From: Oscillospiraceae bacterium
Lineage (GTDB): Bacteria; Bacillota; Clostridia; UMGS1883; UMGS1540
DNA length: 64,000 bases
Direction: 5' to 3'
Assembly (NCBI GenBank): GCA_015068765.1
Contig: SVJY01000004.1
Coordinates: 8,888 to 72,887, forward strand
Made by a program: the position numbers and the translations under genes. Under the pieces are notes generated by a model that made no database searches, had not been told where the DNA came from, and saw nothing but the letters and a program-made list of their open reading frames with translations. Every line of letters begins with the position of its first letter. Position 1 is the stretch's first letter. This document shows positions 1,209 through 58,886 of the stretch, piece after piece.

Positions 1209-3290
1209 TTATTTCTCTTCTTCGGCTTCTGCTTTGGCTTTTTCGATAATGGCCTGTGCTACGTTTGCCGGTGCTTCTTCGTAGCGGACAAATTCCAGAG
1301 TGAAGCTACCGCGTCCCTGTGTCATGGAGCGAAGATCGGTGGCATACTTATGCATTTCGCTCATGGGCACTTCTGCCTGCACAAGACCCATGCCCTTGCC
1401 CACATGGTCCATACCTAAGATACGGCCGCGGCGTTTGTTGGCATCACCAACGATATCGCCCATGTAGCTTTCCGGAACGCTGACCTGCAGTGTGCCGTAG
1501 GGTTCGAGAAGAACAGGGCCCGCCTGCTTCAGACCTTCCTTATATGCCAGAGAAGCGGCAACCTTAAATGCCATTTCAGAGGAGTCAACCGGATGGTAGG
1601 AGCCATCCACCAGTGTAGCTTTCAGACCTACAACCGGGTAGCCTGCCAGAACGCCCTTCTGGATGCATTCACGAAGACCCTTTTCAACAGCCGGGAAGAA
1701 GTTCTTCGGAACCGCACCGCCGAAAATGTTGGTTTCAAAAATCAGATCATCTGTATCGCCCGGTTCAAATTCAATCCAGACATCACCGAACTGACCGTGA
1801 CCGCCGGACTGTTTCTTATGTCTACCCTGTACCTTAACCTTCTTGCGGAGGGTTTCACGGTAAGGAACACGGGGTTCTATCAAATCAACGGCTACGCCGA
1901 ACTTCGTCTTCAGCTTGCTGACGATAACGTCCAGATGCTGTTCGCCGATACCGGAGATAACCTGCTGACGGGTTTCGGTATTGATTGCTACCTTGAAGCA
2001 GGGATCCTCTTCTTCCAGTTTATGGAGACCGCTACCGATCTTTTCTTCATCACCCTTTGCCTTAGGCACAATAGCCAGAGAAAGGTTGGGCTTGGGGAAG
2101 TTAATGCCTTCGAGTGTGATGGGATTAGTGGGCGAACAAAGCGTCTGCCCCGTCTGGGTGGCAGTCAGCTTTGTTACGGCACCGATATCGCCTGCGGTAA
2201 TGGAATCCACCTCAATCTGCTTTTTGCCGCGAAGTACATACAGCTTACCGATTTTTTCCTGCGAACCCGTCTGTGCATTCAGCACGGTGCTGTCTGCCTT
2301 CAGTGTACCGGAATACACACGGAAAATAGAAATCTTTCCTACGAACTGGTCAGCAACCGTCTTGAAAACAAGTGCGGAAAGCGGTGCATTCGGGTCGGGT
2401 TTTACCACCACGTCTTCCCCGTTTTTATCCTTGCCGATCACTTCGTTTAAGTTCAGCGGGCTGGGGAAGTAATCTGCAATCGCATCCATAACCTTCATCA
2501 CGCCCATATTCGCTGTGGCACTGCCGCAGAATACGGGGACGATTTCTTCTGCTTTGAAGCCGTCCTTAATCGCTGTTCTGATTTCCTCTACCGTAAACTC
2601 TTCGCCCTCAAAATATTTTTCCATCAGCTCTTCGCTGGTTTCTGCGATTGCTTCAATCAGGAGGCGACGTGCTTCTTCCAGTGTTTCTGTGCAGCTGTCC
2701 GGAATGGCATCCATCTGTATCCGCTTCGTGCCGTCAAAGCGGTAGGGAACCATTTTCACAACGTCTACATACCCGATGAACTTGCCGTCTTCCCGAATGG
2801 GAACCTGGAACGGTGCAACGGATTTTCCGAAGGTTTGGTCCAGCTCCTGCATCGTCCGCATAAAGTTGGCGTTTTCATCATCCATTTCGTTTACAAAGAA
2901 TGCGGCAGGAATTCTGGCCTCGCGGGTATAATCCCATGCCTTTTCCGCACCGACGGCTACGCCGCTCCGACCGGATACAAGGATAATGGCGGCACCGGCA
3001 ACACGGATACCTTCCTTCACTTCACCGACGAAATCAAAAAATCCCGGTGTGTCAATTACATTGATTTTCGTGCCGTTCCACTCGCAGGGCACCATAGATG
3101 TATTTATTGAAATAGAGCGTTTGGTCTCTTCCTGGTCATAGTCCGACAGTGTTGTACCGTCCACAATCTTTCCCAGTCTGTCCGTTGCTCCGGCATTAAA
3201 TGCCATTGCTTCGGCAAAGGACGTCTTTCCTGCACCACCATGACCTAAAAGCACAACGTTCCTGATTTTTTCTACTGCATACTTGTTCAT
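1209..3290 (-). CDS. Elongation factor G family GTPase (EF-G paralog)
   Basis: G-domain with GHGGAGKT P-loop and DTPG motif. EF-G domains II-V present. Start moved to the internal ATG at 3290 (MNKYAVEKIRN) preceded by a GGAGGAAATGG RBS; the longer ORF has no RBS. Confidence 0.85.
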   Translation of the reverse strand: MNKYAVEKIRNVVLLGHGGAGKTSFAEAMAFNAGATDRLGKIVDGTTLSDYDQEETKRSISINTSMVPCEWNGTKINVIDTPGFFDFVGEVKEGIRVAGAAIILVSGRSGVAVGAEKAWDYTREARIPAAFFVNEMDDENANFMRTMQELDQTFGKSVAPFQVPIREDGKFIGYVDVVKMVPYRFDGTKRIQMDAIPDSCTETLEEARRLLIEAIAETSEELMEKYFEGEEFTVEEIRTAIKDGFKAEEIVPVFCGSATANMGVMKVMDAIADYFPSPLNLNEVIGKDKNGEDVVVKPDPNAPLSALVFKTVADQFVGKISIFRVYSGTLKADSTVLNAQTGSQEKIGKLYVLRGKKQIEVDSITAGDIGAVTKLTATQTGQTLCSPTNPITLEGINFPKPNLSLAIVPKAKGDEEKIGSGLHKLEEEDPCFKVAINTETRQQVISGIGEQHLDVIVSKLKTKFGVAVDLIEPRVPYRETLRKKVKVQGRHKKQSGGHGQFGDVWIEFEPGDTDDLIFETNIFGGAVPKNFFPAVEKGLRECIQKGVLAGYPVVGLKATLVDGSYHPVDSSEMAFKVAASLAYKEGLKQAGPVLLEPYGTLQVSVPESYMGDIVGDANKRRGRILGMDHVGKGMGLVQAEVPMSEMHKYATDLRSMTQGRGSFTLEFVRYEEAPANVAQAIIEKAKAEAEEEK

Positions 3291-3461
3291 ACCATTTCCT
3301 CCTCGTATATATAAAAAGTTCTGGGTTTCCGTTTCAGCCGCCGGGGGCGTCGTACGTTTTCTATCCCGATACCTTATATTATAATATAAAAAACAAAAAT
3401 ACGGAATGCCTATTTTAGACAATCTTTTTTTGCATTTTTTAGTCAAAATGCACAAACATTC

Positions 3462-4238
3462 TTATCGAGCATCATAGAATCGCACCGTTCCGTCCTCTGT
3501 TTCCACCTTCCAGACGGGGACAGCGTCTGCCGTATGATACCCTTCCTCCGCCAGAAAAACCGCATATCCGTTTTCCACACGGGTAACGGTATGATTCCCG
3601 TCGGTTTCCTGCAGGAAAGAAAGAAGCGCACTCGTGGCATCCCGAATCACACCGCGTTCCTTGGCGGCTGTTACGACTTCCGCCCACACGCCCTCCATAC
3701 GGGCGACCGTTCCGTCACCGGCCGGATAGACCGTGAGACTGTATTGGAAGAGGGGTAGGCCGTTCACCTTCTGTACAAACCGAACAATGCCGTCCTCCAC
3801 CGTCCCCTCGGCATACTCCATGGAAAAGCCCATGTCTTCCAGTGCCTTTTTCATCGCTTTTACACTTTTTTTGTCAGCCGGTACTGCTTCCGCGGTGCCG
3901 GTATAGATAAATCCCTTTTGCGGGAAGGTGACACTTTTTCCGTCCCGTCGCCAGACAGTGCCGAACCGTGCCGCCGTCCCCCCAAGAAGCCGGGCGGCAA
4001 ACTCGTCCGGATTTGCTTTAGGGTTTTCCAGCGTCAGCGTTCCCATACGGGGGGTTTTATAGGGTACCTTGGCAGAGACAGTTACGCCGTTTTGCTCCAA
4101 AATGGCCACCGCGCCGTCCACCCTCTCCCGTATGGCACGGGATCCGGAAAAGGCATCGATTCCCAGCATGACCGCCAGAAAAATATTGATGGCGGCAAAC
4201 AAAAAAATGAGTACGGTTTTTATGCGATACCAATTCAT
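3462..4238 (-). CDS. Membrane-anchored hypothetical protein, YycI-like
   Basis: Single N-terminal TM (MNWYRIKTVLIFLFAAINIFLAVM) resembling the YycI/YycH N-terminus, followed by an extracytoplasmic domain. RBS GGGGTGAGGGT. Directly downstream of the DUF1624 gene. Confidence 0.5.
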   Translation of the reverse strand: MNWYRIKTVLIFLFAAINIFLAVMLGIDAFSGSRAIRERVDGAVAILEQNGVTVSAKVPYKTPRMGTLTLENPKANPDEFAARLLGGTAARFGTVWRRDGKSVTFPQKGFIYTGTAEAVPADKKSVKAMKKALEDMGFSMEYAEGTVEDGIVRFVQKVNGLPLFQYSLTVYPAGDGTVARMEGVWAEVVTAAKERGVIRDATSALLSFLQETDGNHTVTRVENGYAVFLAEEGYHTADAVPVWKVETEDGTVRFYDAR

Positions 4239-4242
4239 ACCC

Positions 4243-4983
4243 TCACCCCTTCATAAGTGTTTCAAACAGGAAAAATATACCGAAAATAATCGGCTGATGC
4301 AAAAGATAGATTGCTAAGCTGTGCCGACCACAAAATGCCAGAAAACGGCAATGTATCCTACCCCTCGGCAGTGGGAGCCGTCCGATGAAAACACCGGCGG
4401 CAAACAGGAAAATATGGGGCAGAAGCGGTACATAATCAAGGCTCTGGAAGGCGGGGCTCGGAAAGCCCACGGCCGTCAGCACCCCACCGCTGTACCATGC
4501 GGCAGGCAGGGAATGGTGCAGAAGAAAGCCGTCGGAAATGCGGTAAGTTATCGCATACAAAATAACGGACAGCACCAATCCCCAAACCGGGGGGATTTTT
4601 TCGGTCAGCCGTCTTCCCGGCACCTCTAACGCCATACAGACAGCCAGACAGTGCAAAACCCCAAACCAAATTGTCTGGGCAGGGAAAACCGCATAGGTGA
4701 CCGCCGTGACCGCCACGGCACCAAAAAGCACACGTCCCACCCGTCCCCACGGGCGGCGTGTCATATGGGAGCATATGCCGGAAAGCCCCAGAAAAACGGC
4801 TACAAAAATGGTATGTAAAACACCAAGAAACCGGCTTTCCATCACCGTTTCCAGCCAAGGAAAGGGCAGATGTAAAAAGTCGCTTAGGTTAAAAGCGATA
4901 TGGTAAAGAATCATTGCAACGACTGCAAGACCCCGCAGCTCATCAATCCAGCCGATGCGTGTGCTTTTTTGTTCCATGTTCAC
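4243..4983 (-). CDS. DUF1624 (heparan-alpha-glucosaminide N-acetyltransferase-like) polytopic membrane protein
   Basis: N-terminal IDELRGLAVVAMILYHIAFNL motif and multiple TM helices characteristic of DUF1624/acyltransferase-3-like proteins. Confidence 0.6.
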   Translation of the reverse strand: MNMEQKSTRIGWIDELRGLAVVAMILYHIAFNLSDFLHLPFPWLETVMESRFLGVLHTIFVAVFLGLSGICSHMTRRPWGRVGRVLFGAVAVTAVTYAVFPAQTIWFGVLHCLAVCMALEVPGRRLTEKIPPVWGLVLSVILYAITYRISDGFLLHHSLPAAWYSGGVLTAVGFPSPAFQSLDYVPLLPHIFLFAAGVFIGRLPLPRGRIHCRFLAFCGRHSLAIYLLHQPIIFGIFFLFETLMKG

Positions 4984-5143
4984 AGCTCCTTTTTTTCAGT
5001 GTACCATAAAAGACCGGAAAATGCAATCTTTTCTGCATACATTTCCCCTTTTCTAAAAAAAGTCTGGCATTTTCTTCCAAAGTATGCTATACTTATATAT
5101 GTATGAAAATTTTTAGGCTTTTAGGCTGTAAGGAGGCTTTCCA

Positions 5144-5956
5144 TTGGCTTATCTTCAATCTGCAATTTTAGGACTTGTGCAGGGGCTGACGGAGTTCTTG
5201 CCCGTTTCCAGTTCCGGTCATCTTGCCATTTTTAAGCGTATTCTGGGCACGGAAACTTTTTCCGTCTCGCTTACGATGGATATTCTGCTCCATGTCGGCA
5301 CCCTCGTTGCCGTGTTTATGGTATACTATAAAGACATCTGGGCACTTGTGCGGGAGTTTTTCTGTATGCTTTGGGACCTTGTTCGGGGAAAGCCGGATTT
5401 TTCCACACCCTATCGCCGCTTCGTGCTTATGGTACTGCTCGGCTCTGTGCCGGCGGCATTTGCCGGCGTGATTGTAAAGGATGCCATCAGCACGCTGCCC
5501 CTTTTCTGCGTGGGGATTGCTCTATTTGTAACTGCACTGCTCCTATGGCTTTCCGATCGAATTGTAGGCAGCCACAAAACCATGGCCTCCGCTTCCCTTC
5601 CCTCCGCACTTTTGGTAGGTCTTTTTCAAGCGGTGGCGATTCTGCCCGGCATCAGCCGTTCCGGCTCCACCATTGTGGGTGCAAGACTTGCCGGATACAG
5701 CCGTGAATTTGCAGTGAAATTTTCTTTTATTTTATCAGTTCCTGCCATTTTAGGTGCGGCTCTTTTAGACGGGATTGATATTTTACAGGGTGCGGCACCT
5801 GCCATAGCCATAGGGCCTGCCCTCTTAGGCATGGTCGTGGCGGCACTCAGCGGTTTTCTGGCTATTCGCCTTCTGATTCGCCTTGTACAAAAGAGTAAGT
5901 TTCACTATTTCGCCTACTACTGCATGCTGGCAGGTATAGTTGCGATTGTTTTATAA
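5144..5956 (+). CDS. uppP: Undecaprenyl-diphosphatase UppP (BacA)
   Basis: GLVQGLTEFLPVSSSGHL and PGISRSGSTI signature motifs. 270 aa polytopic membrane protein. Confidence 0.92.
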   Translation: MAYLQSAILGLVQGLTEFLPVSSSGHLAIFKRILGTETFSVSLTMDILLHVGTLVAVFMVYYKDIWALVREFFCMLWDLVRGKPDFSTPYRRFVLMVLLGSVPAAFAGVIVKDAISTLPLFCVGIALFVTALLLWLSDRIVGSHKTMASASLPSALLVGLFQAVAILPGISRSGSTIVGARLAGYSREFAVKFSFILSVPAILGAALLDGIDILQGAAPAIAIGPALLGMVVAALSGFLAIRLLIRLVQKSKFHYFAYYCMLAGIVAIVL

Positions 5957-5976
5957 AAAATAACGGAGGATTTACC

Positions 5977-8253
5977 ATGGCTGAGAGAAAACGAATTCCG
6001 GCAAAAAGCAAGAAAACAGGTGTATCCCGAGAGCTCCGGGCGGTTATTCTGATTGCCCTGGGCATTATTGCGGCACTCTGTTTTTATACAGAGGCTTCCG
6101 CCTCCCCTTTAGGCGGTGCCGTGAAAGCCTTCGGGCTCGGTATGCTGGGCAACGTAGGGTATTTCCTGCCCCCCTTCCTCCTGGTCTACGGTGTGCATAA
6201 TCTGATAAAACAGGATTTTTCCCCCTATCGGAACCGTTACATACTGATACTGGTCTTTATGCTTCTCAGTGCCGGTCTTTTGCATCTTTTCCGGGGCGAA
6301 ATCTCTTGGGATTTCGGCCTGCATTACACGAGTCAGCGTGCCGGCGGTATTCTCGGTGCACTCCTTGCCACTGTACTGGTAAAGCTTACCGGAAAGGCTA
6401 TTTCGGTTGTGATTTTCCTTCTGCTTCTTTTGCTGACGTTTATCGGGATTACCGGCATATCTCTGCCTGAGGCTATAGAGAAGCTCCGGGTGCGTATTGC
6501 GGCTCTCCTTGCCGCCAGAAAGGCAAAAGAGAAAACGCCGACACCCGCTCCGGAAAAACCTGTCCGGCAGAAAAAAGTGCCGGCGGCAAAGACAGAAGAT
6601 AAGGAAGAAGAGCCCTTCGATTTTGATAAAATTAAAATCTTTACTCATGACCAGATGACGGTCAATGATATGCCCACAGACGAAGAAATCCCCATTTCCG
6701 AGCCGGAGAACAAAGCGACTGTGCCGTCTGTCTCCCCCGCGGAAGAGAAGGAGGAAATCGGTCCGCCGGTGGCCGTGTCGGAAATCGAAGCGGAAATCAC
6801 GGAGCGGAAAGCCGAACGAATCTATATTTACCCATCCACAGACCTTCTGGCAAAGCCGAAGCTGACAAAGTCGGACAAGCCCGAGGATTTGCGTGAAAGT
6901 GCCAAAAAACTCGTTGATACGCTGAAAAGCTTCGGTGTGGAAGCCAAAATTTTAGAGGTAACAAAGGGACCCAATATTACCCGGTATGAATTACAGCCCT
7001 CTGCCGGTGTCAAGGTCAGCAAAATTGTGAATCTCGCTGATGATATTGCCTTAAACCTTGCCGCAACCGCTGTTCGTATCGAAGCCCCGATCCCCGGCAA
7101 GGCGGCAGTGGGAATTGAAGTACCTAACAAAAATGCTGCCACGGTAACGCTTCGGGAAATGCTGGAAACGCAGGAATTCAGAGACTTTAAGGCAAAGACT
7201 GCCTTTGCGGTAGGTAAGAACATTTCCGGGCAGACGCTTGTTGCCGATCTTTCCAAAATGCCGCATCTTCTCATTGCAGGTGCTACCGGCTCCGGTAAGA
7301 GCGTGTGTATTAACACCTTAATTGCCAGCCTTATTTACAAGGCTTCCCCGGACGATGTGCGGCTTCTGATGATTGACCCCAAGGTTGTGGAGCTGAAGGT
7401 GTATAACGGACTGCCCCACCTTCTGATTCCCGTGGTGACGGACCCCCGGAAGGCGGCCGGTGCCTTAAACTGGGCGGTGACGGAAATGCTCCGGCGGTAC
7501 AAGCTGTTTTCCGAAAGCAACGTGCGTAATCTCGCAGGCTATAATGAATATTTGGTCAGCGAAGGCGAAAAGACCATGGAATCCGTGATTATCATCGTGG
7601 ACGAGCTGGCAGACCTTATGATGGCCGCCCCCCACGAGGTAGAGGATGCCATTTGCCGTCTGGCACAGATGGGACGTGCGGCAGGTATGCACCTGGTTAT
7701 CGCTACCCAGCGTCCCAGCGTAGACGTTATCACAGGACTTATCAAAGCTAACATTCCCTCCCGTATCGCTTTTGCGGTATCCAGCCAGATTGACAGCCGC
7801 ACCATCCTGGATATGATGGGTGCAGAAAAGCTACTCGGTAAGGGTGATATGCTCTACTTACCCTTTGGTGCCGCAAAGCCCATCCGCCTGCAAGGTGCCT
7901 TTATATCCGACAAGGAGGTAGAGGATCTCGTAAACTTTGTGAAAGGTGACGAGGAAGCCGAATACGACGAGGAAATTCTGGAAAAACTGGAGCATGGAGA
8001 GGAAAACTGCGAGGATGACCCCGGCGACAGTGATGAACTGCTTTCCCAAGCCATTGAAATTGCCGTGGAAAGCGGGCAGATATCGGTTTCCATGGTACAG
8101 CGTCGTCTCAAGGTAGGCTACAGCCGTGCTGGCCGTATTGTCGACCAAATGGAGGCAAGAGGGATTATCGGCCCGCACGAGGGCTCTAAGCCCCGACAGG
8201 TGCTGATTACCAAACAACAGTATTATGAAATGACAATGCATTCGGAAGAATAA
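5977..8253 (+). CDS. ftsK: DNA translocase FtsK/SpoIIIE
   Basis: N-terminal 4-TM segment, P/E/K-rich linker, motor domain with Walker A GATGSGKSV, C-terminal gamma winged-helix domain. Confidence 0.92.
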   Translation: MAERKRIPAKSKKTGVSRELRAVILIALGIIAALCFYTEASASPLGGAVKAFGLGMLGNVGYFLPPFLLVYGVHNLIKQDFSPYRNRYILILVFMLLSAGLLHLFRGEISWDFGLHYTSQRAGGILGALLATVLVKLTGKAISVVIFLLLLLLTFIGITGISLPEAIEKLRVRIAALLAARKAKEKTPTPAPEKPVRQKKVPAAKTEDKEEEPFDFDKIKIFTHDQMTVNDMPTDEEIPISEPENKATVPSVSPAEEKEEIGPPVAVSEIEAEITERKAERIYIYPSTDLLAKPKLTKSDKPEDLRESAKKLVDTLKSFGVEAKILEVTKGPNITRYELQPSAGVKVSKIVNLADDIALNLAATAVRIEAPIPGKAAVGIEVPNKNAATVTLREMLETQEFRDFKAKTAFAVGKNISGQTLVADLSKMPHLLIAGATGSGKSVCINTLIASLIYKASPDDVRLLMIDPKVVELKVYNGLPHLLIPVVTDPRKAAGALNWAVTEMLRRYKLFSESNVRNLAGYNEYLVSEGEKTMESVIIIVDELADLMMAAPHEVEDAICRLAQMGRAAGMHLVIATQRPSVDVITGLIKANIPSRIAFAVSSQIDSRTILDMMGAEKLLGKGDMLYLPFGAAKPIRLQGAFISDKEVEDLVNFVKGDEEAEYDEEILEKLEHGEENCEDDPGDSDELLSQAIEIAVESGQISVSMVQRRLKVGYSRAGRIVDQMEARGIIGPHEGSKPRQVLITKQQYYEMTMHSEE

Positions 8254-8266
8254 GGAGGCGTTAAAC

Positions 8267-10051
8267 ATGCAGATTACGAAGGACATCTTATATGTAGGTG
8301 TCAACGACCACGCGGTGGATTTGTTTGAAGGGCAGTATACCGTTCCAAATGGTATGTCCTACAATTCCTATGTGATTAAAGACGAAAAGATTGCCGTTAT
8401 GGACACGGTGGACAGCCATTTTGGTCACCAGTGGCTGGACAACCTGGCGGAAGCCTTTGCCGGACGGAAGCCGGACTACCTGATTGTTCAGCACATGGAA
8501 CCGGACCATTCGGCACAGATTGCCAACTTTATGCAGGTGTACCCCGAGGCACAGATTGTATCCAGTGCCAAGGCCTTTACCATGATGCGTCAGTTCTTCG
8601 GCACCGATTTTGAAGGACGGCAGGTCGTAGTGGGCGAAGGAAGCACCCTGTCCTTAGGCCGTCACCAGTTGACCTTTGTGACCGCACCCATGGTACACTG
8701 GCCGGAGGTGATTGTTACCTATGACAGCACGGATAAAGTGCTGTTCTCCGCTGACGGATTCGGCAAATTCGGTGCACTGGACACAGAAGAGGAATGGGCC
8801 TGCGAAGCAAGGCGGTACTATATCGGCATCGTGGGCAAATACGGTGCCCAGGTACAGAAGCTTCTGGAAAAAGCCGCCGGCCTGGATATTGCCATCATCT
8901 GCCCTCTGCACGGGCCGGTGCTGACAGAAAACCTCGACTACTATTTGGGTCTTTATAACACATGGTCCTCCTACGAAGCAGAGGATGACGGTGTACTGAT
9001 TGCCTACACCTCTATTTACGGCAATACAAAAGCGGCCGCCCTCTCCCTTGCGGAAAAAATGCGTGCGGCAGGTTGCCCCCATGTGGCAGTAACGGATCTT
9101 GCACGGGACGATATGGCAGAGGCGGTGGAGGATGCCTTCCGCTATTCCAAGCTGGTGCTTGCCTCTCCTACCTACAATGCCGGCATTTTCCCCTTTATGC
9201 GTACATTTATTGACGGACTTGTGGAGCGAAACTACCAAAACCGCACCGTCGCCTTTATTGAAAACGGCTCATGGGCACCACAGGCGGCAAAGGTAATGGC
9301 AGAAATGCTTGCCGGCTGTAAAAACATCACGTTTGCAAAAAATACCGTCCGGATACTGTCTGCCATGGACGATGCGGCCAAAAAGGCCCTGGACGCCCTC
9401 TGTGATGAGCTCTGTGTGGAGTACAAGGCACAAAAAGGGGAAGAAAAGAACGATTTGTCTGCCCTGTTTAAAATCGGATACGGTCTTTATGTGGTTACGT
9501 CGCACGACGGAAAGAAGGATAACGGTCTGATTGTCAACAGCGTGTCCCAGCTGACAAGCAATCCGAACCGGGTGGCCGTGACAATCAACAAGGAAAACTA
9601 TTCGCACCATGTTATTGAAAAGACAGGAAAAATGAATCTGTGCTGTCTTTCCCAGGATGCACCCTTCCGCATTTTTGAAACCTTTGGCTTTAAGAGTGGT
9701 CGCACAGCAGATAAGTTTGCCGATATGGAGGTGCTCCGTGCAGATAACGGCCTTGCCTTCCTGCCCCGGTATATCAATTCCTTCATGTCCCTTTCGGTGG
9801 AGCAGTATATGGACCTTGGCACCCACGGCATGTTCGTCTGCAGTGTGACGGAGGCACGTGTGATCTCCGATACGGAAACCATGACCTATACCTATTACCA
9901 TAAAAATGTGAAGCCAAAGCCCAAAACAGAGGGCAAAAAGGGCTTTGTATGTAAAATATGCGGCTATGTCTACGAGGGCGATACCTTGCCTGAGGATTTC
10001 ACCTGTCCCCTATGTAAGCACGGGGCATCGGATTTTGCACCGATAGAGTAA
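8267..10051 (+). CDS. Multi-domain flavodiiron protein (metallo-beta-lactamase diiron core + flavodoxin + flavin-reductase-like domain + C-terminal rubredoxin)
   Basis: HMEPDH diiron motif, flavodoxin segment (IAYTSIYGNTK), FMN-binding split-barrel flavin-reductase-like segment, and a terminal CKICGYVYEG...CPLCKHG rubredoxin. Confidence 0.85.
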   Translation: MQITKDILYVGVNDHAVDLFEGQYTVPNGMSYNSYVIKDEKIAVMDTVDSHFGHQWLDNLAEAFAGRKPDYLIVQHMEPDHSAQIANFMQVYPEAQIVSSAKAFTMMRQFFGTDFEGRQVVVGEGSTLSLGRHQLTFVTAPMVHWPEVIVTYDSTDKVLFSADGFGKFGALDTEEEWACEARRYYIGIVGKYGAQVQKLLEKAAGLDIAIICPLHGPVLTENLDYYLGLYNTWSSYEAEDDGVLIAYTSIYGNTKAAALSLAEKMRAAGCPHVAVTDLARDDMAEAVEDAFRYSKLVLASPTYNAGIFPFMRTFIDGLVERNYQNRTVAFIENGSWAPQAAKVMAEMLAGCKNITFAKNTVRILSAMDDAAKKALDALCDELCVEYKAQKGEEKNDLSALFKIGYGLYVVTSHDGKKDNGLIVNSVSQLTSNPNRVAVTINKENYSHHVIEKTGKMNLCCLSQDAPFRIFETFGFKSGRTADKFADMEVLRADNGLAFLPRYINSFMSLSVEQYMDLGTHGMFVCSVTEARVISDTETMTYTYYHKNVKPKPKTEGKKGFVCKICGYVYEGDTLPEDFTCPLCKHGASDFAPIE

Positions 10052-18743: not shown

Positions 18744-19181
18744 TTAGTATGCAGAGGGTTCAATTTTATGCACCCGTGCGGCGTGTCTGCCGCCCAAAAA
18801 TTCTGCTTCAAGCCATGCATCCACGCATGCCGCCGCCAGTGCACCGCCGGTCACCCTGCCGCCAAAGCACAGGATGTTTGCATTGTTGTGCTCTGTGGCA
18901 AGTCTTGCAGAAACCGGTTCCGAAACCAGTGCCGCCCGGATCCCTGCATATTTATTTGCGGCAATGGAAATGCCGATGCCTGTTCCGCAACATAAAATTC
19001 CTTTTTCGCAATCGCCGGACAGAATTTTCTGCACAGCGATTCTGGCATAGTCCGGATAGTCACAGGACTGTCCGTCACAGCCGATATCGACAAACGGAAT
19101 TTCCTTTTCCTTCAGATACGCCTTCAGGTATTCCTTTAATTCATATCCACCATGATCGCTACCAATTACTATCATTGTCAT
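18744..19181 (-). CDS. rpiB: Ribose-5-phosphate isomerase B
   Basis: IGSDHGGYELK and GILCCGTGIGISIAANK motifs. 145 aa. Confidence 0.9.
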   Translation of the reverse strand: MTMIVIGSDHGGYELKEYLKAYLKEKEIPFVDIGCDGQSCDYPDYARIAVQKILSGDCEKGILCCGTGIGISIAANKYAGIRAALVSEPVSARLATEHNNANILCFGGRVTGGALAAACVDAWLEAEFLGGRHAARVHKIEPSAY

Positions 19182-19230: not shown

Positions 19231-19884
19231 TTAATTAACAAAAAGTTTTTTGCGTCTATCAAAATATTTTCGGTTTAGACTACAATAAATTATATTTGCC
19301 ATTATTGTTGCACATATATTTAATACCGAAATTTTTTCAAATAATATAATACCTATAAAAATATTATAAACAACATAACATACAACCTCGAATGTAACCA
19401 AGTCCACAAAAAGTCTCGGGGCCTCTTTTTCAAACTTTGCTAATTTAAACCTCACTATAACCATACATACAGCGAAAAACAGACGAGAAATCCCATATAC
19501 GAAAACAAACCCCTTCAACCATTGAAACGCATTATAACTTATATCGGGTAAAATAATTAAGCGTACCATATTTACAAATATTATCAAACTCATTAACCCA
19601 TCGGACAGCAAAAGAAGCACGTCTTTCCAAAGAGAAAAGTAAATCAGATAATTAAACCAGCGCATCGAGAACAATGGTTCTTCTGGTTTAGAAGCGTTTG
19701 TCTCCGTATTTTGTTGTTCAACAGCTTTATCTATCTGTAATTCCTGTTGTTCTTCCTCTTGAACAACTGAAGTAGGCAAATTCATCATTTCTTCTTTGCT
19801 TACAAATCGTATTTCATTCTTAAGTTTCGCATATACTGCACCTTTTGGTAAAACCACGGCTTGTTTTTTCTTGTTCTTAAACAT
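19231..19884 (-). CDS. Hypothetical membrane protein in an AT-rich, probably foreign, segment
   Basis: Roughly 33% GC versus 55-58% in flanks. Lys-rich N-terminus, acidic linker, ~4 predicted TM helices. Wedged between tsaB and rpiB. Confidence 0.5.
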   Translation of the reverse strand: MFKNKKKQAVVLPKGAVYAKLKNEIRFVSKEEMMNLPTSVVQEEEQQELQIDKAVEQQNTETNASKPEEPLFSMRWFNYLIYFSLWKDVLLLLSDGLMSLIIFVNMVRLIILPDISYNAFQWLKGFVFVYGISRLFFAVCMVIVRFKLAKFEKEAPRLFVDLVTFEVVCYVVYNIFIGIILFEKISVLNICATIMANIIYCSLNRKYFDRRKKLFVN

Positions 19885-19887
19885 CCG

Positions 19888-20571
19888 TCATTCTCCTTTA
19901 TTCTTTTCCAAATATTCCCGTTCCGCCTGGGAAAGCCGCAAATAGAACGGGGCAACCTCATGAGGGGAAAGGGGCGAAATTGTTTGTGCTGCCATCGCCA
20001 CGGAAGCTGCCCGATGATGGACAAGATGGGCCGGTGCGAAACGAGCTCTGTCTCCCATTTTATCCATAATTGCCGCCCGATGTACTGCGACACCGTCCCC
20101 CACAAAAAGGGCTGTGTCCAATTGGGATACTAAGTCAGAAAGCGGAATGGCACGCATGGGCGTGACCTCTTCTATTCTGCTGTCCCTTGCACGGTACGTT
20201 GCCGTATAAACCTCGCCACGTCTCGCATCCATGATAGGAACAATAATGCCCTCATACGCTACCATCGTATATGCCAGTCCCAAAAGTGTGGGCACCGGAA
20301 TCAAGGGCAAATCGGCACCCAGTGCCAGACCCTTCGCCGTCGCCATACCAATCCGCACGCCGGTGAAGGAGCCGGGGCCGGCACTCACCGCCACCGCATC
20401 CATATCCCCAAGCGTTTTTCCTGCGGCAGACAGTGCCGCATCCACCAGGGGCAGAAGCGTTTGGGAATGGGTGTGCCCATTATTTACAAACTGTTCGCTG
20501 AGAAGTGTATCGCCGCACAAAACGGCGGCACCGGCACTGATTGCCGCACTCTCAATAGCCAATATATTCAA
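19888..20571 (-). CDS. tsaB: tRNA threonylcarbamoyladenosine biosynthesis protein TsaB
   Basis: MNILAIESAAISAGAAV ... AVSAGPGSFTGVRIG YeaZ/TsaB motifs. Confidence 0.88.
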   Translation of the reverse strand: MNILAIESAAISAGAAVLCGDTLLSEQFVNNGHTHSQTLLPLVDAALSAAGKTLGDMDAVAVSAGPGSFTGVRIGMATAKGLALGADLPLIPVPTLLGLAYTMVAYEGIIVPIMDARRGEVYTATYRARDSRIEEVTPMRAIPLSDLVSQLDTALFVGDGVAVHRAAIMDKMGDRARFAPAHLVHHRAASVAMAAQTISPLSPHEVAPFYLRLSQAEREYLEKNKGE

Positions 20572-44904: not shown

Positions 44905-46635
44905 ATGCAAGAGAAAGGATTGATAAATATGGCGAACCGATTATCGGGCAGTAAAAGCCCTTATCTTCTACAGCACAAAGCCGACCCTGTGGACTGGTAT
45001 CCGTGGGGTGCGGAGGCCTTTGAAAAGGCAGAAGCGGAAGACAAGCCGGTGCTTCTCTCCATTGGATACAGTGCCTGCCACTGGTGCCACGCCATGGCCG
45101 AGGAAAGCTTTTCCGATCCTACCACAGCGGAAATCATCAACAAGCATTTTGTGCCCGTGAAGGTGGACAGAGAAGAAAGGCCGGACGTGGATGCGGTATA
45201 CATGAATGTATGCCGTGCCATGACCGGGGACGGCGGCTGGCCATTACACCTTCTGCTCACGCCGGGGCGAAAGCCCTTTTTTGCCGGCACCTACTACCCC
45301 AGAGAGGATCAGGGCGGACACATGGGCTTTCAAACCCTACTGAAAAGTGCCGCCGATGCCTGGTCCAGCCGACGGCAGGCGGTGGTGGATACGGCAGGGA
45401 AGATTGCGGATGTTTTAAACCGGGAAGAAGACGGAATGTATACCGAAACTATATCCCCCGAAGCCACGGATGACGCCGCCGCCGATCTTGCCGCCGCCTT
45501 CGACAAGGAATACGGCGGCTTCGGTGCGGCACCCAAATTCCCCATGCCCCAGATTCCCATGTTCCTCCTCGCCTATGGACGGAAATATGCCAATGCGGAG
45601 AGCCGGAAAATGGCGGAGAAAACCTTGCAGAAAATCCATGATGGCGGTCTATGCGACCATGTGGGTGGCGGCTACTTCCGCTATGCCACCGACCGAGAAT
45701 GGCGAAAGCCACATTATGAAAAGATGCTGTATGACAATGCACTTCTCGCCATTTCGTTCCTGGAGGCCGGCGGCAGCTTCACCGCCTATGCCGAGGATGC
45801 CCTCGCCTTTATGGAGACTGTTTTGAAAAGTGACGCCGGCGGCTTTTACAGTGCAGTCAGTGCAGAAAGTATGGAAGGGGAAGGGGCATACTATCTCTGG
45901 GACGCGGCAGAGGTTCGGGACGTACTGGGGAAGGATGCCAAGGATTTTTGCCGTACCTTCCACATTACCGAGCGTTCTCTCCCTTATGTTGAACGAGAAA
46001 GTACGGCAGATTATGCGAATCAACTCGCCGCTCTTCTCCGCAAGCGGCAAAGCCGCCCCCGGCCAGACATCGACCGAAAAATTCTCACCGGCTGGAACAG
46101 TCTGGCGGCGGTAGCATTTGCCCGGGCAGGTGCACTTTTGGGAAATAATGCCTATACGCAGACGGCAGAGGATATTCTCCGGTTTATTGATAGCACACTC
46201 CGTACGGAGGACGGGCGGCTTCTTGCCCGGTATTACGGCGGCGAGGCCGGCATCTACGCTTTTTTGGAGGACTATGCCTATCTTCTCTGGGCACAGCTGA
46301 CCTTATGGGAAACCACAAATCACGTGGCGTATCTGACCCATGCTAAGGAAACGTGGGGCGATATTGTGCGGCTGTTCTGGGATGAGCGGGGCGGTGCCAC
46401 CTTCAGCGCACGAGATGCGGAGGAAATGATTGTTCGGCTTATGGAGGGCGATGACGGTGCCACCCCGCCGGCAAACGGCGTGCTTGCCCTTTGCCTTTAT
46501 AAGCTATTCACCGCCACCGGCGACGTGCAGTATAAAACGGACATGGAAAAAATCTTTTTTGCCTTTGGCGGACAGGTGAATACCCATCCCTCTGCCTTCT
46601 GTTTTATGCTCTACGCAAAGCTTGCAACTGAATGA
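44905..46635 (+). CDS. yyaL: Thioredoxin-domain protein YyaL (DUF255 + six-hairpin glycosidase-like domain)
   Basis: [22 protein letters not shown]...[13 protein letters not shown] thioredoxin-like CxxC region. 576 aa. Confidence 0.88.
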
Positions 46636-46685
46636 CAATGCTTAACCTCTAAGACTTTTTGTGCTGCTTCGGGAGCAAATGAAAG

Positions 46686-46726
46686 GGGCCGTCTTACGAA
46701 GAAAGTAAGACGGCTCTAAATTTTTG
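46686..46726 (+). terminator. Intrinsic terminator after yyaL
   Basis: Hairpin GCCGTCTTAC-gaagaaa-GTAAGACGGC followed by a T-rich tract. Confidence 0.6.
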
Positions 46727-46815
46727 CACACAAAAAGACTGTTTGCACTTTTAAACATTGATTTCTATGAATAAATATGGTATAATATGAAAAAATTCTT
46801 ATGAGGTGTTTGGGA

Positions 46816-47421
46816 ATGGCAAAATTGTGTGAATGTTGTGGTAATAAAAATAATTCTTTTTTAGGAGATCCGCTTTATTTGACTAATGATAAAATTCTTT
46901 GTCATAAATGTGCCCAACTTATAAAAAAGGACGTGAACAACCTTTACTATGCTAAAACAAATGATGAGTATGAAGAATTAAAAAATATCATTGTCGCAAA
47001 ATGCAAAGAATGTTTCAATGATACTATAATGCAGTATATTATAATTATATTGGATAAAATCTATGACAGATTAGATTTTGTAAAAAAAGAGAATCAAGTA
47101 ACTAGTTCTGCAACAACAGTAGGTTCAACTACAAATACAGAAACTGTATCTGCTGACAATGAATCTGAACGTTCTTTTGGAATGTTTGATAATATTGGTG
47201 GTAAAATAAAGGCAATGTCACAAATTATTACCTGGGTAGGTATTATTGTGTCTGTCGTTTTTGGCATCGTTTTGATGTCCATTGATGAAGACATGATTTT
47301 TATAGGTCTAATGGCCATGATTTTTGGTTCTTTGTTTTCTTGGGTTTCTTCTTTTATACTATATGGGTTTGGACAGTTGGTGGAAAACTCTGATATATTA
47401 GTAAAATTATCAAAAAAATAA
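46816..47421 (+). CDS. Hypothetical zinc-ribbon plus 2-TM membrane protein in an AT-rich islet
   Basis: CECCG...CHKC...CKEC N-terminal Cys cluster, S/T-rich linker, C-terminal TM hairpin. About 30% GC. Bracketed by terminators. Start at MAKLCE with GAGGTG RBS. Confidence 0.5.
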   Translation: MAKLCECCGNKNNSFLGDPLYLTNDKILCHKCAQLIKKDVNNLYYAKTNDEYEELKNIIVAKCKECFNDTIMQYIIIILDKIYDRLDFVKKENQVTSSATTVGSTTNTETVSADNESERSFGMFDNIGGKIKAMSQIITWVGIIVSVVFGIVLMSIDEDMIFIGLMAMIFGSLFSWVSSFILYGFGQLVENSDILVKLSKK

Positions 47422-47451
47422 CAACTATTTAAACAAACTTTACATAAAGTG

Positions 47452-47484
47452 AAAAAGCCGCCCTTTCGCGGGCGGCTTTTTTAA
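47452..47484. terminator. Bidirectional intrinsic terminator
   Basis: AAAAAGCCGCCC-tttcgc-GGGCGGCTTTTTT. Serves the convergent + hypothetical gene and the - ABC ATPase gene. Confidence 0.75.
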
Positions 47485-47494
47485 TAAGCTCGAA

Positions 47495-48610
47495 TTAGTT
47501 GATGATTGTCTTTTCGGTTTCAAGATCAAAGAGGTGAATCTTGTTTGCATCGATTGCAACCTGAATGTCCTCACCGATAGCCGCGGTGGAACGGCGGTTA
47601 ACCTTTGCAATAACGGAAGCACCATCAATCAGCAGATACAGATAGGTTTCTGCACCCATCATTTCTGTGTTATCCACGTGTGCCGAAACAACACTGCCTT
47701 CCATAGCAGAGATGTGGGCTTCATCATCATAAATACATTCGGGACGAATACCAACCATAACTTCTTTGCCGAAGTATTCTTCCTTGTCGGCGAGTGCCTT
47801 TGCCTTGCCTTCGGGAAGGGTGATCTGATTGCCGCCGAAAGTCAGCGTTACTGCATTGTCCTTCTTTTCCAGTGTAGCTTTGAAGAAGTTCATCTGCGGG
47901 CTGCCGATAAAGCCGGCAACAAACATATTAACCGGTACATCGTACAGTTCCTGCGGTGTTGCAACCTGCTGTACGAAGCCATCCTTCATAACAACGATAC
48001 GCGTACCCATTGTCATAGCTTCTGTCTGGTCATGGGTTACATAGATAAAGGTTGTCTGCAGCCTTCTGTGCAGCTTGCCGATTTCGGCACGCATCTGTAC
48101 ACGCAGCTTTGCATCCAGGTTGGAGAGCGGTTCGTCCATAAGGAATACCTTCGGTTCACGAACGATCGCACGACCCAGCGCAACTCTCTGACGCTGACCG
48201 CCGGACAGAGCCTTGGGCTTTCTGTCCAGAAGATGCTCGATATCGAGAATACGTGCAGCTTCATGTACACGTCTCTTAATTTCATCCTTGGGCGTCTTAC
48301 GCAGACGGAGAGCAAATGCCATGTTTTCAAAAACTGTCATATGCGGATAGAGTGCATAGTTCTGGAAAACCATTGCAATATCTCTATCCTTCGGTGCAAC
48401 TTCGTTTACCAAAGTATCACCTATGTATACTTCACCTTCCGAAATTTCTTCCAAACCTGCGATCATACGCAGTGTGGTAGATTTACCACAACCGGAAGGA
48501 CCGACAAGAATTAAAAACTCCTTGTCTTCAATTTCCAGATTAACGTCGCTTACAGCTGTAACGCCGCCTGCGTACCGCTTATAAACGCCTTTCAAACTTA
48601 AACTTGCCAT
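47495..48610 (-). CDS. msmX: Sugar ABC transporter ATP-binding protein (MalK/MsmX/UgpC family)
   Basis: Walker A GPSGCGKST, ABC signature LSGGQRQR, C-terminal TOBE/MalK regulatory domain. Encoded without cognate permease genes, typical of shared MsmX-type ATPases. Confidence 0.88.
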   Translation of the reverse strand: MASLSLKGVYKRYAGGVTAVSDVNLEIEDKEFLILVGPSGCGKSTTLRMIAGLEEISEGEVYIGDTLVNEVAPKDRDIAMVFQNYALYPHMTVFENMAFALRLRKTPKDEIKRRVHEAARILDIEHLLDRKPKALSGGQRQRVALGRAIVREPKVFLMDEPLSNLDAKLRVQMRAEIGKLHRRLQTTFIYVTHDQTEAMTMGTRIVVMKDGFVQQVATPQELYDVPVNMFVAGFIGSPQMNFFKATLEKKDNAVTLTFGGNQITLPEGKAKALADKEEYFGKEVMVGIRPECIYDDEAHISAMEGSVVSAHVDNTEMMGAETYLYLLIDGASVIAKVNRRSTAAIGEDIQVAIDANKIHLFDLETEKTIIN

Positions 48611-57974: not shown

Positions 57975-58179
57975 GCCGGGTCTCCCTCCTGCCGGATTTT
58001 TTCCCTAATATTTTTTCCTTAATATGTATATTATACTATATTCAGGCATGAAAAGCAAAGGTATTTTCAAAAAACGCCCACTTTCTTTTTTATTGCCTCT
58101 TCCACATGATCGAAAAGGCGGAAAAACCGCCGTTTTTATCGTTTCTTTATCCTCTTGGCAAAAAAAAATAAAAAAATGC

Positions 58180-58208
58180 TTTACAAAACGGTAAAACTGT
58201 GGTATACT
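58180..58208 (+). promoter_or_regulatory. Sigma-70 promoter of tRNA-Gly
   Basis: TTTACA, 17 nt spacer, TATACT, ~14 nt upstream of the tRNA 5' end. Confidence 0.65.
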
Positions 58209-58221
58209 ATTATCTGCAAAT

Positions 58222-58297
58222 GCGAATGTAGCTCATCTGGTAGAGCGCCACCTTGCCAAGGTGGAGGTAGCGAGTTCGAGCCTCGTCATTCGCTCCA
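58222..58297 (+). tRNA. tRNA-Gly (anticodon GCC), CCA encoded
   Basis: Cloverleaf folded by hand: acceptor GCGAATG/CATTCGC, anticodon stem CCACC/GGTGG with loop TTGCCAA, T-arm GTTCGAGC, 3' TCCA. 76 nt. Confidence 0.9.
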
Positions 58298-58299
58298 AA

Positions 58300-58332
58300 A
58301 TGACGACGCACAGGTTGCGTCGTTTTTTATTT
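58300..58332 (+). terminator. Intrinsic terminator after tRNA-Gly
   Basis: GACGACGCA-cagg-TTGCGTCGT followed by TTTTTTATTT. Confidence 0.7.
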
Positions 58333-58355
58333 CTATACCTACCGAAAGGAAGTGT

Positions 58356-58886
58356 ATGCCGTTGAAAGCAAAATTATCCACAAAAACGCTGGTCTTTGCC
58401 GGGCTTCTGATTGCCCTGGAGATTGTGCTCACCCGCTTTGTTCAGATTTATCTTCCCATCTTTGCCGAAAGCCGCGACCGAATCAGCCTCGGCTTTCTTC
58501 CCGTGGCTGTAGGCGGTACCCTGTTCGGTCCGGTGGGCGGCGGCATTATTGCCGCAGTCAGTGATATTGTCCGTGCCCTTATTTTCCCACAGGGCGGTGC
58601 TATCAATCCGCTTTTTACCGTGACGGCGGCTCTGCGAGGCGTCCTCTACGGTGCGTTTCTTTATAAATCTGCCACATGGACGCGTGTTCTCCTCGTTTCC
58701 ACCGTGATCCTTTTGGCGGTGAACTTAGGGCTTAACTCTGCCTTTACCGCCTTTTCTTACGGCGGCACCTTCTGGGCAAGGCTCATCACGAAGCTGATTC
58801 CGGCCCTGTCGAACTATATTTTACAGCTTTTCGTACTGATTCCGGTACTGCCCAAGCTGGAAAGGAGTTTGGGGAAAAATGTATGA
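58356..58886 (+). CDS. ECF transporter S-component, folate-family-like (FolT-like)
   Basis: ~176-aa polytopic S-component. Start at MPLKAKLS with AAAGGAAG RBS; the upstream part of the annotated ORF runs through the tRNA and is spurious. Confidence 0.6.
   Translation: MPLKAKLSTKTLVFAGLLIALEIVLTRFVQIYLPIFAESRDRISLGFLPVAVGGTLFGPVGGGIIAAVSDIVRALIFPQGGAINPLFTVTAALRGVLYGAFLYKSATWTRVLLVSTVILLAVNLGLNSAFTAFSYGGTFWARLITKLIPALSNYILQLFVLIPVLPKLERSLGKNV

Follow-up and report, generated by a model that had tools for sequence, protein, structure and literature searches.

The 64,000-nucleotide (nt) stretch of contig SVJY01000004.1 from an Oscillospiraceae bacterium (hereafter the window) carries between positions 46640 and 47490 an AT-rich islet whose single gene encodes a membrane protein of 201 amino acids (46816-47421, forward strand; N-terminus MAKLCECCG). 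Gene coordinates are given in window numbering unless another locus is named. Comparison with its relatives suggests that the islet was very probably acquired horizontally as a cassette. The C-terminal part of its product, a core with two transmembrane (TM) segments, defines a very large uncurated family, mostly clostridial, of which it is the constant module. The putative zinc ribbon at the other end of the protein seems to be an exchangeable cytosolic adaptor that, among the members of this family, is replaced by other ribbons or SHOCT, moved to the opposite end or absent.

The composition of the islet sets it apart from its surroundings. Its GC content is 31.3%, that of the open reading frame (ORF) is 29.4%, and no other 850-bp segment of the window is poorer in GC (mean 50.0%, standard deviation 4.0%; z ~ -4.9). 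This bears out the preliminary description of the stretch, which had pointed to an islet of about 850 bp and about 30% GC; the background of about 57% GC given there was wrong, as the window averages about 50% and the flanking yyaL gene has 55%. The GC content at third codon positions (GC3) is 0.234 in the ORF vs 0.536 +/- 0.065 in 55 window genes (z = -4.7), the values for the first and second positions (GC1 and GC2) are 0.36 and 0.29, and the difference in GC between the gene and its flanks is about -0.21. The single 201-residue protein announced in the same description is well founded: arithmetic from base composition puts the chance occurrence of a 201-codon open frame at about 6e-8 in DNA of 30% GC. 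The Nei-Gojobori ratios of nonsynonymous to synonymous substitutions (dN/dS) to the two nearest DNA copies are 0.10-0.13 for the N-terminal domain, 0.27-0.29 for the core and about 0.5-1.7 for the linker, which has few sites. Purifying selection therefore keeps both folded parts. The elements of the islet and its left neighbor are the following:

44905-46635: yyaL (DUF255/YyaL) gene, upstream of the islet
46685-46717, forward strand: intrinsic terminator hairpin after yyaL (13-bp stem, -22.7 kcal/mol, T-run)
46753-47421, forward strand: block conserved at the DNA level (promoter, 5' untranslated region and coding sequence), the likely transferred unit
46758-46786, forward strand: predicted sigma-70-type promoter (TTGATT, 17-nt spacer, extended -10 element TGgTATAAT; 10 of 12 matches)
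46802-46807, forward strand: Shine-Dalgarno sequence GAGGTG, 8 nt upstream of the ATG at 46816; an equivalent GGAG is kept in homologues
46816-47421, forward strand: ORF of 201 amino acids
47452-47481, both strands: bidirectional intrinsic terminator (perfect 12-bp stem, T-runs on both strands)

A protein identical to that of the islet is encoded on 15 contigs from metagenomes or metagenome-assembled genomes (MAGs) with the same neighbors, and the ten contigs that were retrieved share 99.8-100% DNA identity with the window. The nearest other copies, with 72-73% amino acid identity, belong to genomes of about 36-40% GC, and further copies to genomes of 41-43% GC. The window is 80.2% identical over 676 nt to the closest homologue (locus L179; 72% at the amino acid and 80% at the nt level) and 79.7% identical to L011. 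In both cases the alignable DNA extends from 5 nt upstream of the -35 box to the stop codon (47421), and the flanks are unrelated. Among five compared cassettes, four (window, L179, L011 and L012) keep the TTG of the -35 box, the -10 hexamer TATAAT and the ribosome-binding site; the TG of the extended -10 element is found only in the window and L179, and the -10 hexamer of L013 is TATTAT. Since the similarity spans from the promoter to the stop codon and the terminators differ among the compared cassettes, the mobile unit appears to be the promoter plus the gene. The neighbors are a gerA operon and parAB in L011, RNase III and fucose genes in L012, and a helix-turn-helix gene and gltD in L013; in L180, the copy follows, by 20 bp, a co-directional MgtC / unknown / MaoC-PMSR cluster. 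In L179, a convergent AT-rich tyrosine-integrase-like gene (1729-2730, reverse strand; phrog_216, E = 1e-11) lies 39 bp downstream. A search for neighbors shared between the window and the homologue loci found none. The module proposed at the outset, a single gene acquired horizontally and transcribed as its own unit, is thus well supported by its composition, by the presence of the promoter-to-stop block in unrelated contexts and by the integrase carried beside the closest homologue.

The extreme composition and the autonomous signals also mark the islet as accessory in this genome. A comparison of presence and absence across relatives, which the preliminary description had called for, was made in the six closest species that carry yyaL (YyaL 63-87% identical) and agrees with this status: none of them has a family member within 5 kb of yyaL, and in all six the homology to the window does not extend past the end of yyaL at its stop codon. 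The MsmX-type ATP-binding cassette (ABC) ATPase gene is also missing downstream of yyaL in these species. When strains without the islet were sought through exact matches to the flanking YyaL (two alternative starts) and MsmX proteins, no record was returned.

Three observations on these loci may be added. In the closest related species (L014, 6925-9954), yyaL is followed by a gene for a DinB-like Y-family polymerase and a YolD-like gene, and then by a gene for an AAA_14/DUF4143 ATPase at about 40% GC; the 3' side of yyaL is variable in this lineage. Among the ten contigs nearly identical to the window, the left ends of six (L004, L005, L006, L007, L009 and L010) cluster at window positions 46638-46659, just past the yyaL stop, and thus start within 22 bp of each other, and L004 differs from the window at two bases. 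Such a clustering of assembly breakpoints may point to differences between strains at the left junction or to a drop of coverage in AT-rich DNA. Finally, the full-length homologues of L011 and L012 lie just past the 3' end of GerAA-GerAB-GerAC operons for spore germination (1595-5584 and 2225-6163, respectively), in both cases with two small genes between the operon and the homologue and with other neighbors that differ. With two instances, this proximity may be leftover synteny or a functional hint.

The start codon at 46816 is preferred over an upstream ATG at 46801 (206 amino acids) because of the Shine-Dalgarno sequence that precedes it and because 25 of the 28 aligned full-length homologues begin with MAK, most of them with MAKLC. 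As read from the sequence, the predicted promoter looks constitutive and strong, and no regulator or antitoxin gene adjoins the islet gene. The left boundary of the AT-rich DNA is marked by the hairpin at 46685-46717, which lies inside a longer inverted repeat (46652-46663 / 46729-46740). The second hairpin (47452-47481) has folding energies of -23.4 kcal/mol on the forward strand and -21.9 kcal/mol on the reverse strand, and it is common to the islet gene and to the convergent gene of the MalK/MsmX-type ABC ATPase (47495-48610, reverse strand). The location of the islet between the yyaL terminator and a bidirectional terminator, already recognized in the first reading of the stretch, is confirmed by these two hairpins. 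In a wider frame, the window neighbors of the islet are ArgJ, YyaL, the ABC ATPase, DUF4830 and TyrS. A search for target-site duplications or inverted-repeat borders at the islet found none. A riboswitch or small RNA inside the islet was considered and rejected, as Rfam models matched only the terminators, below threshold, over positions 46000-48000.

The architecture of the protein was studied in an alignment of 28 full-length homologues (37-75% identity), which divides it into four parts: a Cys4 site, a helical region, a linker devoid of conserved columns and a highly conserved C-terminal block. On the DNA, with disorder assessed by the predicted local distance difference test (pLDDT), the domains are arranged as follows:

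46816-47094, forward strand: residues 1-93, N-terminal domain, predicted cytosolic; putative Cys4 zinc ribbon (C5, C8, C29, C32) on three helices
47095-47181, forward strand: residues 94-122, Ser/Thr/Asn-rich tether, disordered (pLDDT <50) and hypervariable in length and sequence
47182-47421, forward strand: residues 123-201 and stop codon, family-defining core (MFDNIGGKIK, TM1, DED loop, TM2, YGFGQLVENSD and a short basic tail)

C5, C8, C29 and C32 are invariant in 27 sequences and the corresponding CxxC pairs are conserved in 27-28 homologues. C62 and C65 are lineage-specific, missing from most homologues and located inside a predicted helix. The preliminary description had mentioned a triple CxxC cluster: all three motifs are indeed present, but only C5/C8 and C29/C32 are conserved. 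The lack of conservation of C62/C65 thus argues for one putative zinc site, and a triple-CxxC or two-metal cluster was rejected for the same reason. In the AlphaFold2 (AF2) models, the N-terminal domain has a pLDDT of 80-90 within the full protein and of 85 as an isolated domain, and C5/C8/C29/C32 are placed on short strands before a helix at residues 30-43. Its matches to curated zinc-ribbon models and folds are weak (ADD_DNMT3, E = 0.6; LIM domains, E = 0.01-0.06; RING and nuclear-receptor folds, E above 0.4), and a homologue search with this domain alone returned a single fragment. The Ser/Thr-rich linker and the C-terminal TM hairpin of the preliminary description are both recovered, the former as the disordered tether and the latter in the AF2 monomer model, in which residues 127-200 form a confident helical hairpin, as well as in the hydropathy profile, which places TM1 at about 133-156 and TM2 at about 160-183 with an acidic D-E-D loop between them. 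Small residues or glycines are conserved on both helices (G142, G150, G164, G171, S175, S178/179). A K+-channel-like GFG filter was considered and rejected, since the motif sits after TM2 and not between the helices. The remote homology search that had been recommended for the zinc ribbon and the TM hairpin was carried out and gave no significant fold or profile match: Foldseek found nothing below E ~0.08 with the full model against PDB and BFVD or with the N-terminal domain model against PDB, and PDB profile searches with the N-terminal domain and core alignments found nothing significant.

The orientation of the protein can be proposed from the distribution of its domains. Soluble Cys4 domains occur at either end of the two-helix hairpin, which would imply that both termini are on the same side of the membrane, and the Lys-rich segment before TM1 together with the acidic loop between the helices suggests that this side is the cytoplasm. 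The predicted modular architecture and N-in/C-in topology of the islet protein are probably correct.

The family to which the protein belongs is defined by the core. About 80 of the 110 first-round homologues match over the last ~75 residues only (55-65% identity); in these, the conserved block starts at residue 1 (MFDNIGGKIK) and is followed by a variable linker and then by C-terminal zinc ribbons of several kinds, by SHOCT helices or by nothing. Among 299 sampled members, the core comes first and carries a C-terminal extension in 76%, the extension is N-terminal, as in the window protein, in 15%, and the other 9% are bare cores; no member has extensions on both sides. The most conserved parts are the juxtamembrane motifs MFxNIGGKIK and SWxSSFxLYGFGQLVENSD, and N126, K130, G171 and G186 are invariant in 79 diverse cores. 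A search of 1.84 billion proteins with the core profile returned 7,643 clusters (50% identity) at E <= 1e-3; for 4,473 of them the E-value is 1e-10 or lower. In a second database, 3,114 clusters at 90% identity match the profile, and the only name given to them is 'hypothetical protein', from MAGs of Oscillospiraceae, Ruminococcaceae and Lachnospiraceae. The core is covered by no Pfam, NCBIfam, PHROGs or PADLOC model, viral copies included in the case of PHROGs. Pfam and NCBIfam searches on ten divergent relatives likewise found nothing significant on the core and generic zinc-ribbon or SHOCT matches on the extensions only. The TM region gives weak matches far below threshold to SLATT_1 (E ~0.5), CyanoTRADDas_TM (E 0.06-0.7) and TIGR04402 (E 0.006-0.07). 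No study of this family emerged from literature searches on the core motifs, on TIGR04402 and on exclusion proteins of the zinc-ribbon/two-TM kind. The difference in GC between gene and flanks has a median of -0.03 over 63 family loci (range -0.17 to +0.12), which indicates that the core family is not intrinsically AT-rich; the window copy is more extreme than any of these, and copies in genomes of about 57% GC reach 55-59% GC with their motifs intact. A second copy of the core family was not found within the window. Two adjacent core-family copies, hence tandem paralogues, are present in each of the metagenome contigs L139, L168 and L175.

The genomic contexts of the family are diverse. Neighbor clustering of 43 loci recovered shared genes only within one human-gut lineage, represented by 20 contigs, and no partner gene conserved across lineages. 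Genes of the SMODS, SLOG or other nucleotide-signaling families are absent among the 25 most frequent of the 142 Pfam families matched by 117 neighbor proteins at 21 loci, and also among the Pfam-annotated neighbors listed for L011-L013, L179 and L180. Some members are found on viral contigs, where their GC content is 4-11 points below that of their flanks. On a siphovirus-like IMG/VR contig (L094, 6381-12081), the major tail protein is followed by two overlapping ORFs in the chaperone position, which have no PHROG annotation, then by an ORF for a small secreted protein (phrog_301) and by the family member (8001-8375), immediately before the 1,208-amino acid tape-measure gene; two extra genes for small envelope proteins thus occupy the slot of the HK97 gene 15 moron. 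In L095 and L098, the member is encoded on the opposite strand and has the tail-sheath gene on one side and head/neck genes on the other. Outside viral contigs, a member of 128 amino acids (L147, 5793-6179) lies about 220 bp downstream of a type II array of 15 clustered regularly interspaced short palindromic repeats (CRISPR; 4627-5585) that comes after cas9-cas1-cas2, the GC content of this genome being about 26%, and a lipoprotein with an Ltp domain is encoded three genes from the member of L107. The support for a phage-related role is purely positional and suggestive.

The closest parallel to this arrangement is provided by morons, which are added genes with their own promoter and terminator and with a GC content unlike that of their neighbors (PMC3594210). 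One of them encodes HK97 gp15 (Cumby et al. 2012), a small inner-membrane protein that stops genome entry of superinfecting phages, and most gp15 homologues (YebO) are ordinary chromosomal genes without exclusion activity (PMC3594210). Like HK97 gene 15, the islet is an autonomous cassette of odd GC content (29% vs 50-55%) with its own sigma-70-like promoter, as predicted, and its own terminator (47452-47481), and its product is likewise a small inner-membrane protein whose homologues are mostly chromosomal and of unassigned function. The L094 member has the same place as HK97 gene 15, after the ORFs in the chaperone position and before the tape-measure gene. The islet protein differs from gp15 in having two TM helices and a zinc-ribbon domain, and it has no match to the YebO Pfam model or to HK97 PHROGs even at E <= 10. 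Residence in a phage or prophage is found only for the relatives in L094-L098; because the window copy lies outside any prophage, it is better called moron-like than a moron. The superinfection-exclusion proteins P22 SieA and TP-J34 Ltp are also small envelope proteins, borne by prophages and expressed from their own promoters, but they have different topologies and show no homology to the islet protein.

Other known systems resemble the protein in part. SLATT and CyanoTRADDas (PF18181, PF20712), two-TM effector domains of conflict systems based on nucleotide signaling, share with the core a two-helix hairpin that acts as a constant module fused to variable cytosolic domains. Nevertheless, the SLATT model (PF18181 / NF033634) reaches only E 0.46-0.54 in two members and does not match the window protein, and the usual partners (SMODS, SLOG, TRADD-N) were not found in the neighborhoods of the core family. 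We know of no SLATT or CyanoTRADDas feature that corresponds to NIGGKIK or YGFGQLVENSD. TIGR04402, a 'mobilome CxxCx(11)CxxC protein', would by its name be a mobile-element protein with a Cys4 motif, like the islet protein, and the TM/linker regions of three divergent members weakly match the same part of its profile. Yet the best of these matches has 16.8 bits (E 0.006) and those of P0030 and P0047 have 13-15 bits, well short of the cutoff of 70 bits, and the Cys spacing of the islet protein is CxxC-x20-CxxC (C8 to C29) instead of x11. The Firmicutes zinc-ribbon/SHOCT proteins resemble the family in joining short cytosolic ribbons or SHOCT helices to small TM modules (PMC3581485, PMC11237479). 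Membrane anchoring has been proposed for SHOCT-like (PMC11237479), and the two-TM core is described in neither of these studies (PMC3581485, PMC11237479). Several members of the family carry SHOCT after the hairpin, and the window protein lacks it. A class II holin (two TM segments, N-in/C-in) was considered and rejected, as there is no lysis cassette and the phage copies lie in tail or head-tail modules. No endolysin is encoded near the window gene.

The explanation that we favor is that of an acquired, moron-like, one-gene cassette with a role in membrane modification or phage exclusion, which as a whole we regard as having an even chance of being correct. According to it, a self-contained cassette (promoter, ribosome-binding site, coding sequence and terminator) would have landed in the 3'-3' gap between the convergent yyaL and MsmX-type genes. 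Its product would be a small protein of the inner membrane whose two termini lie in the cytoplasm. In it, the zinc ribbon and its three helices would be tethered to the hairpin, and MFxNIGGKIK, before TM1, and YGFGQLVENSD, after TM2, would come together on the cytoplasmic side of the membrane. This hairpin, probably oligomeric, may engage a conserved membrane-proximal partner or form a gated assembly through these invariant motifs, and the tethered zinc ribbon may bind a protein or nucleic-acid ligand and so recruit or regulate it. The protein would thereby alter the cytoplasmic membrane of its carrier, as HK97 gp15 and other moron cargo do, most plausibly excluding incoming phages. Taken by itself, the exclusion role is drawn by analogy and can be proposed only tentatively. 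A broader version, which we consider improbable, would see in the hairpin a widespread output module of single-protein exclusion or sensing devices of Clostridia, with swappable ribbons or SHOCT helices that sense a cue and with temperate phages that spread it; the hairpin would then act on the membrane or on a conserved machine for phage DNA entry, and the islet would be a cargo gene fixed in the chromosome.

Several observations weigh against the favored explanation. No integrase, tRNA, phage gene or repeat border adjoins the islet in the window, synteny downstream of yyaL is broken in the relatives and provides no clean empty site, and the dS of about 0.6 to the nearest known copies implies that the true donor is not among the sampled ones. 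A pattern-limited scan of 2.9 million IMG/VR contigs recovered members at only 5 loci, and tblastn against 50,697 genomes of isolated phages and 72,556 plasmids found no homologue. PADLOC-DB v2 has 0 defense families matching at E <= 10, the AF2 monomer of the islet protein has no fold neighbors in the searches made, and the oligomerization and partner binding of the hairpin are pure inference. Most sampled members are located among housekeeping genes (21 non-redundant loci), and in the human-gut lineage of about 57% GC the gene is syntenic across the 20 contigs and matches the composition of the host, so that this copy looks like a resident cellular gene and not like a conflict gene. These last contexts, in a huge and mostly chromosomal family of which many copies match host GC, would rather suit a resident membrane protein alien to conflicts, such as a scaffold or regulator of a membrane machine or a protein with a role linked to sporulation or germination. 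The window copy would then stem from a lower-GC relative, either as a xenologous replacement or as an addition, and phages would capture the gene from time to time. The MgtC / unknown / MaoC-PMSR cluster just before the L180 homologue and the gerA operons just before two others also speak for such a role, near-invariant motifs over thousands of lineages suit a conserved cellular partner better than the target of an arms race, and the mostly non-phage gp15 homologues of the YebO type, devoid of an exclusion phenotype, provide a precedent (PMC3594210). Nevertheless, the lack of a cross-lineage neighbor leaves this resident protein without a nameable pathway, the absence of the gene from the locus in the six relatives, its extreme composition and its autonomous signals make it accessory here, and its occurrence in phage structural modules requires a separate account. 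We regard this resident role as a possible but not a preferred alternative, about equally likely as the phage-exclusion role.

Two further explanations seem less probable than the moron-like cassette. The islet protein could be an abortive-infection or toxin-like effector, comparable to SLATT or holins, in which the ribbon senses a phage or stress cue and a pore formed by the hairpin depolarizes the membrane and kills or arrests the cell. A constant two-TM module with interchangeable 'sensor' domains follows the logic of conflict systems, the small residues and glycines conserved along both helices would be congruent with it, SLATT_1 and CyanoTRADDas_TM recur as weak matches on the TM region, and some members are found in phage contexts or in the flanks of CRISPR arrays. 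Yet these profile matches have E-values of 0.06-0.7 and fall on hydrophobic segments, the structural matches to pore-formers have E ~0.4-1, and among the families listed in the neighborhoods there is no SMODS, SLOG, nuclease or antitoxin partner. Furthermore, a constitutive-looking promoter without regulator or antitoxin would be hard to tolerate for a lethal pore, and conservation peaks in the cytosolic juxtamembrane motifs, not in the helices that would line the pore. The membrane-acting defense or toxin effector imagined in the preliminary description is thus not demonstrated, there being no PADLOC match, no match to pore-formers or effectors, no conserved partner and mostly ordinary chromosomal contexts, and we consider it quite unlikely. 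The other explanation is a native gene made AT-rich by its amino acid content (Asn, Lys, Ile, Phe) or by selection on expression. The protein is indeed rich in AT-coded residues, as reflected in its GC1 and GC2, its close homologues are likewise offset from the composition of their hosts by 0.08-0.12, and the window contains a second AT-rich gene for a membrane protein. However, GC3, which is largely free of amino acid constraint, is 0.23 vs 0.54, members from high-GC genomes keep the same motifs at 55-59% GC, the promoter region is conserved in other genomes with similarity ending at the edges of the cassette, and the gene is absent at the locus in the relatives. This native origin is already largely refuted and very improbable.

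The second compositional outlier of the window is a multi-TM ORF of 217 amino acids on the reverse strand (19231-19884; 32% GC, GC3 0.29), which has no Pfam match. Its neighbors, both of the same strand, are an rpiB-like gene (18744-19181) and a tsaB-like gene (19888-20571), and almost no intergenic space separates it from them, unlike the case of the islet. The sole tRNA of the window, tRNA-Gly(GCC) (58222-58297, forward strand), overlaps a mechanically called ORF (58155-58886) and, since it is 11 kb away, is not the integration site of the islet.

The islet itself is an ordinary kind of event, and what is distinctive is the large uncurated family of its protein. If the favored explanation is true, the islet would be a clean natural example of a moron-type cassette moved from promoter to stop codon into a bacterial chromosome, and a phage-exclusion phenotype would represent a new single-gene membrane defense; if the protein is an ordinary envelope protein, the gene would be a routine accessory gene. 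The family spans thousands of lineages of gut and rumen Clostridia and has no curated model, structure or literature, and it combines unusually invariant juxtamembrane motifs with a shuffling of cytosolic zinc ribbons that resembles circular permutation. The definition of its domain would clear many of the 'hypothetical proteins' that currently populate the annotations of Oscillospiraceae and Lachnospiraceae.

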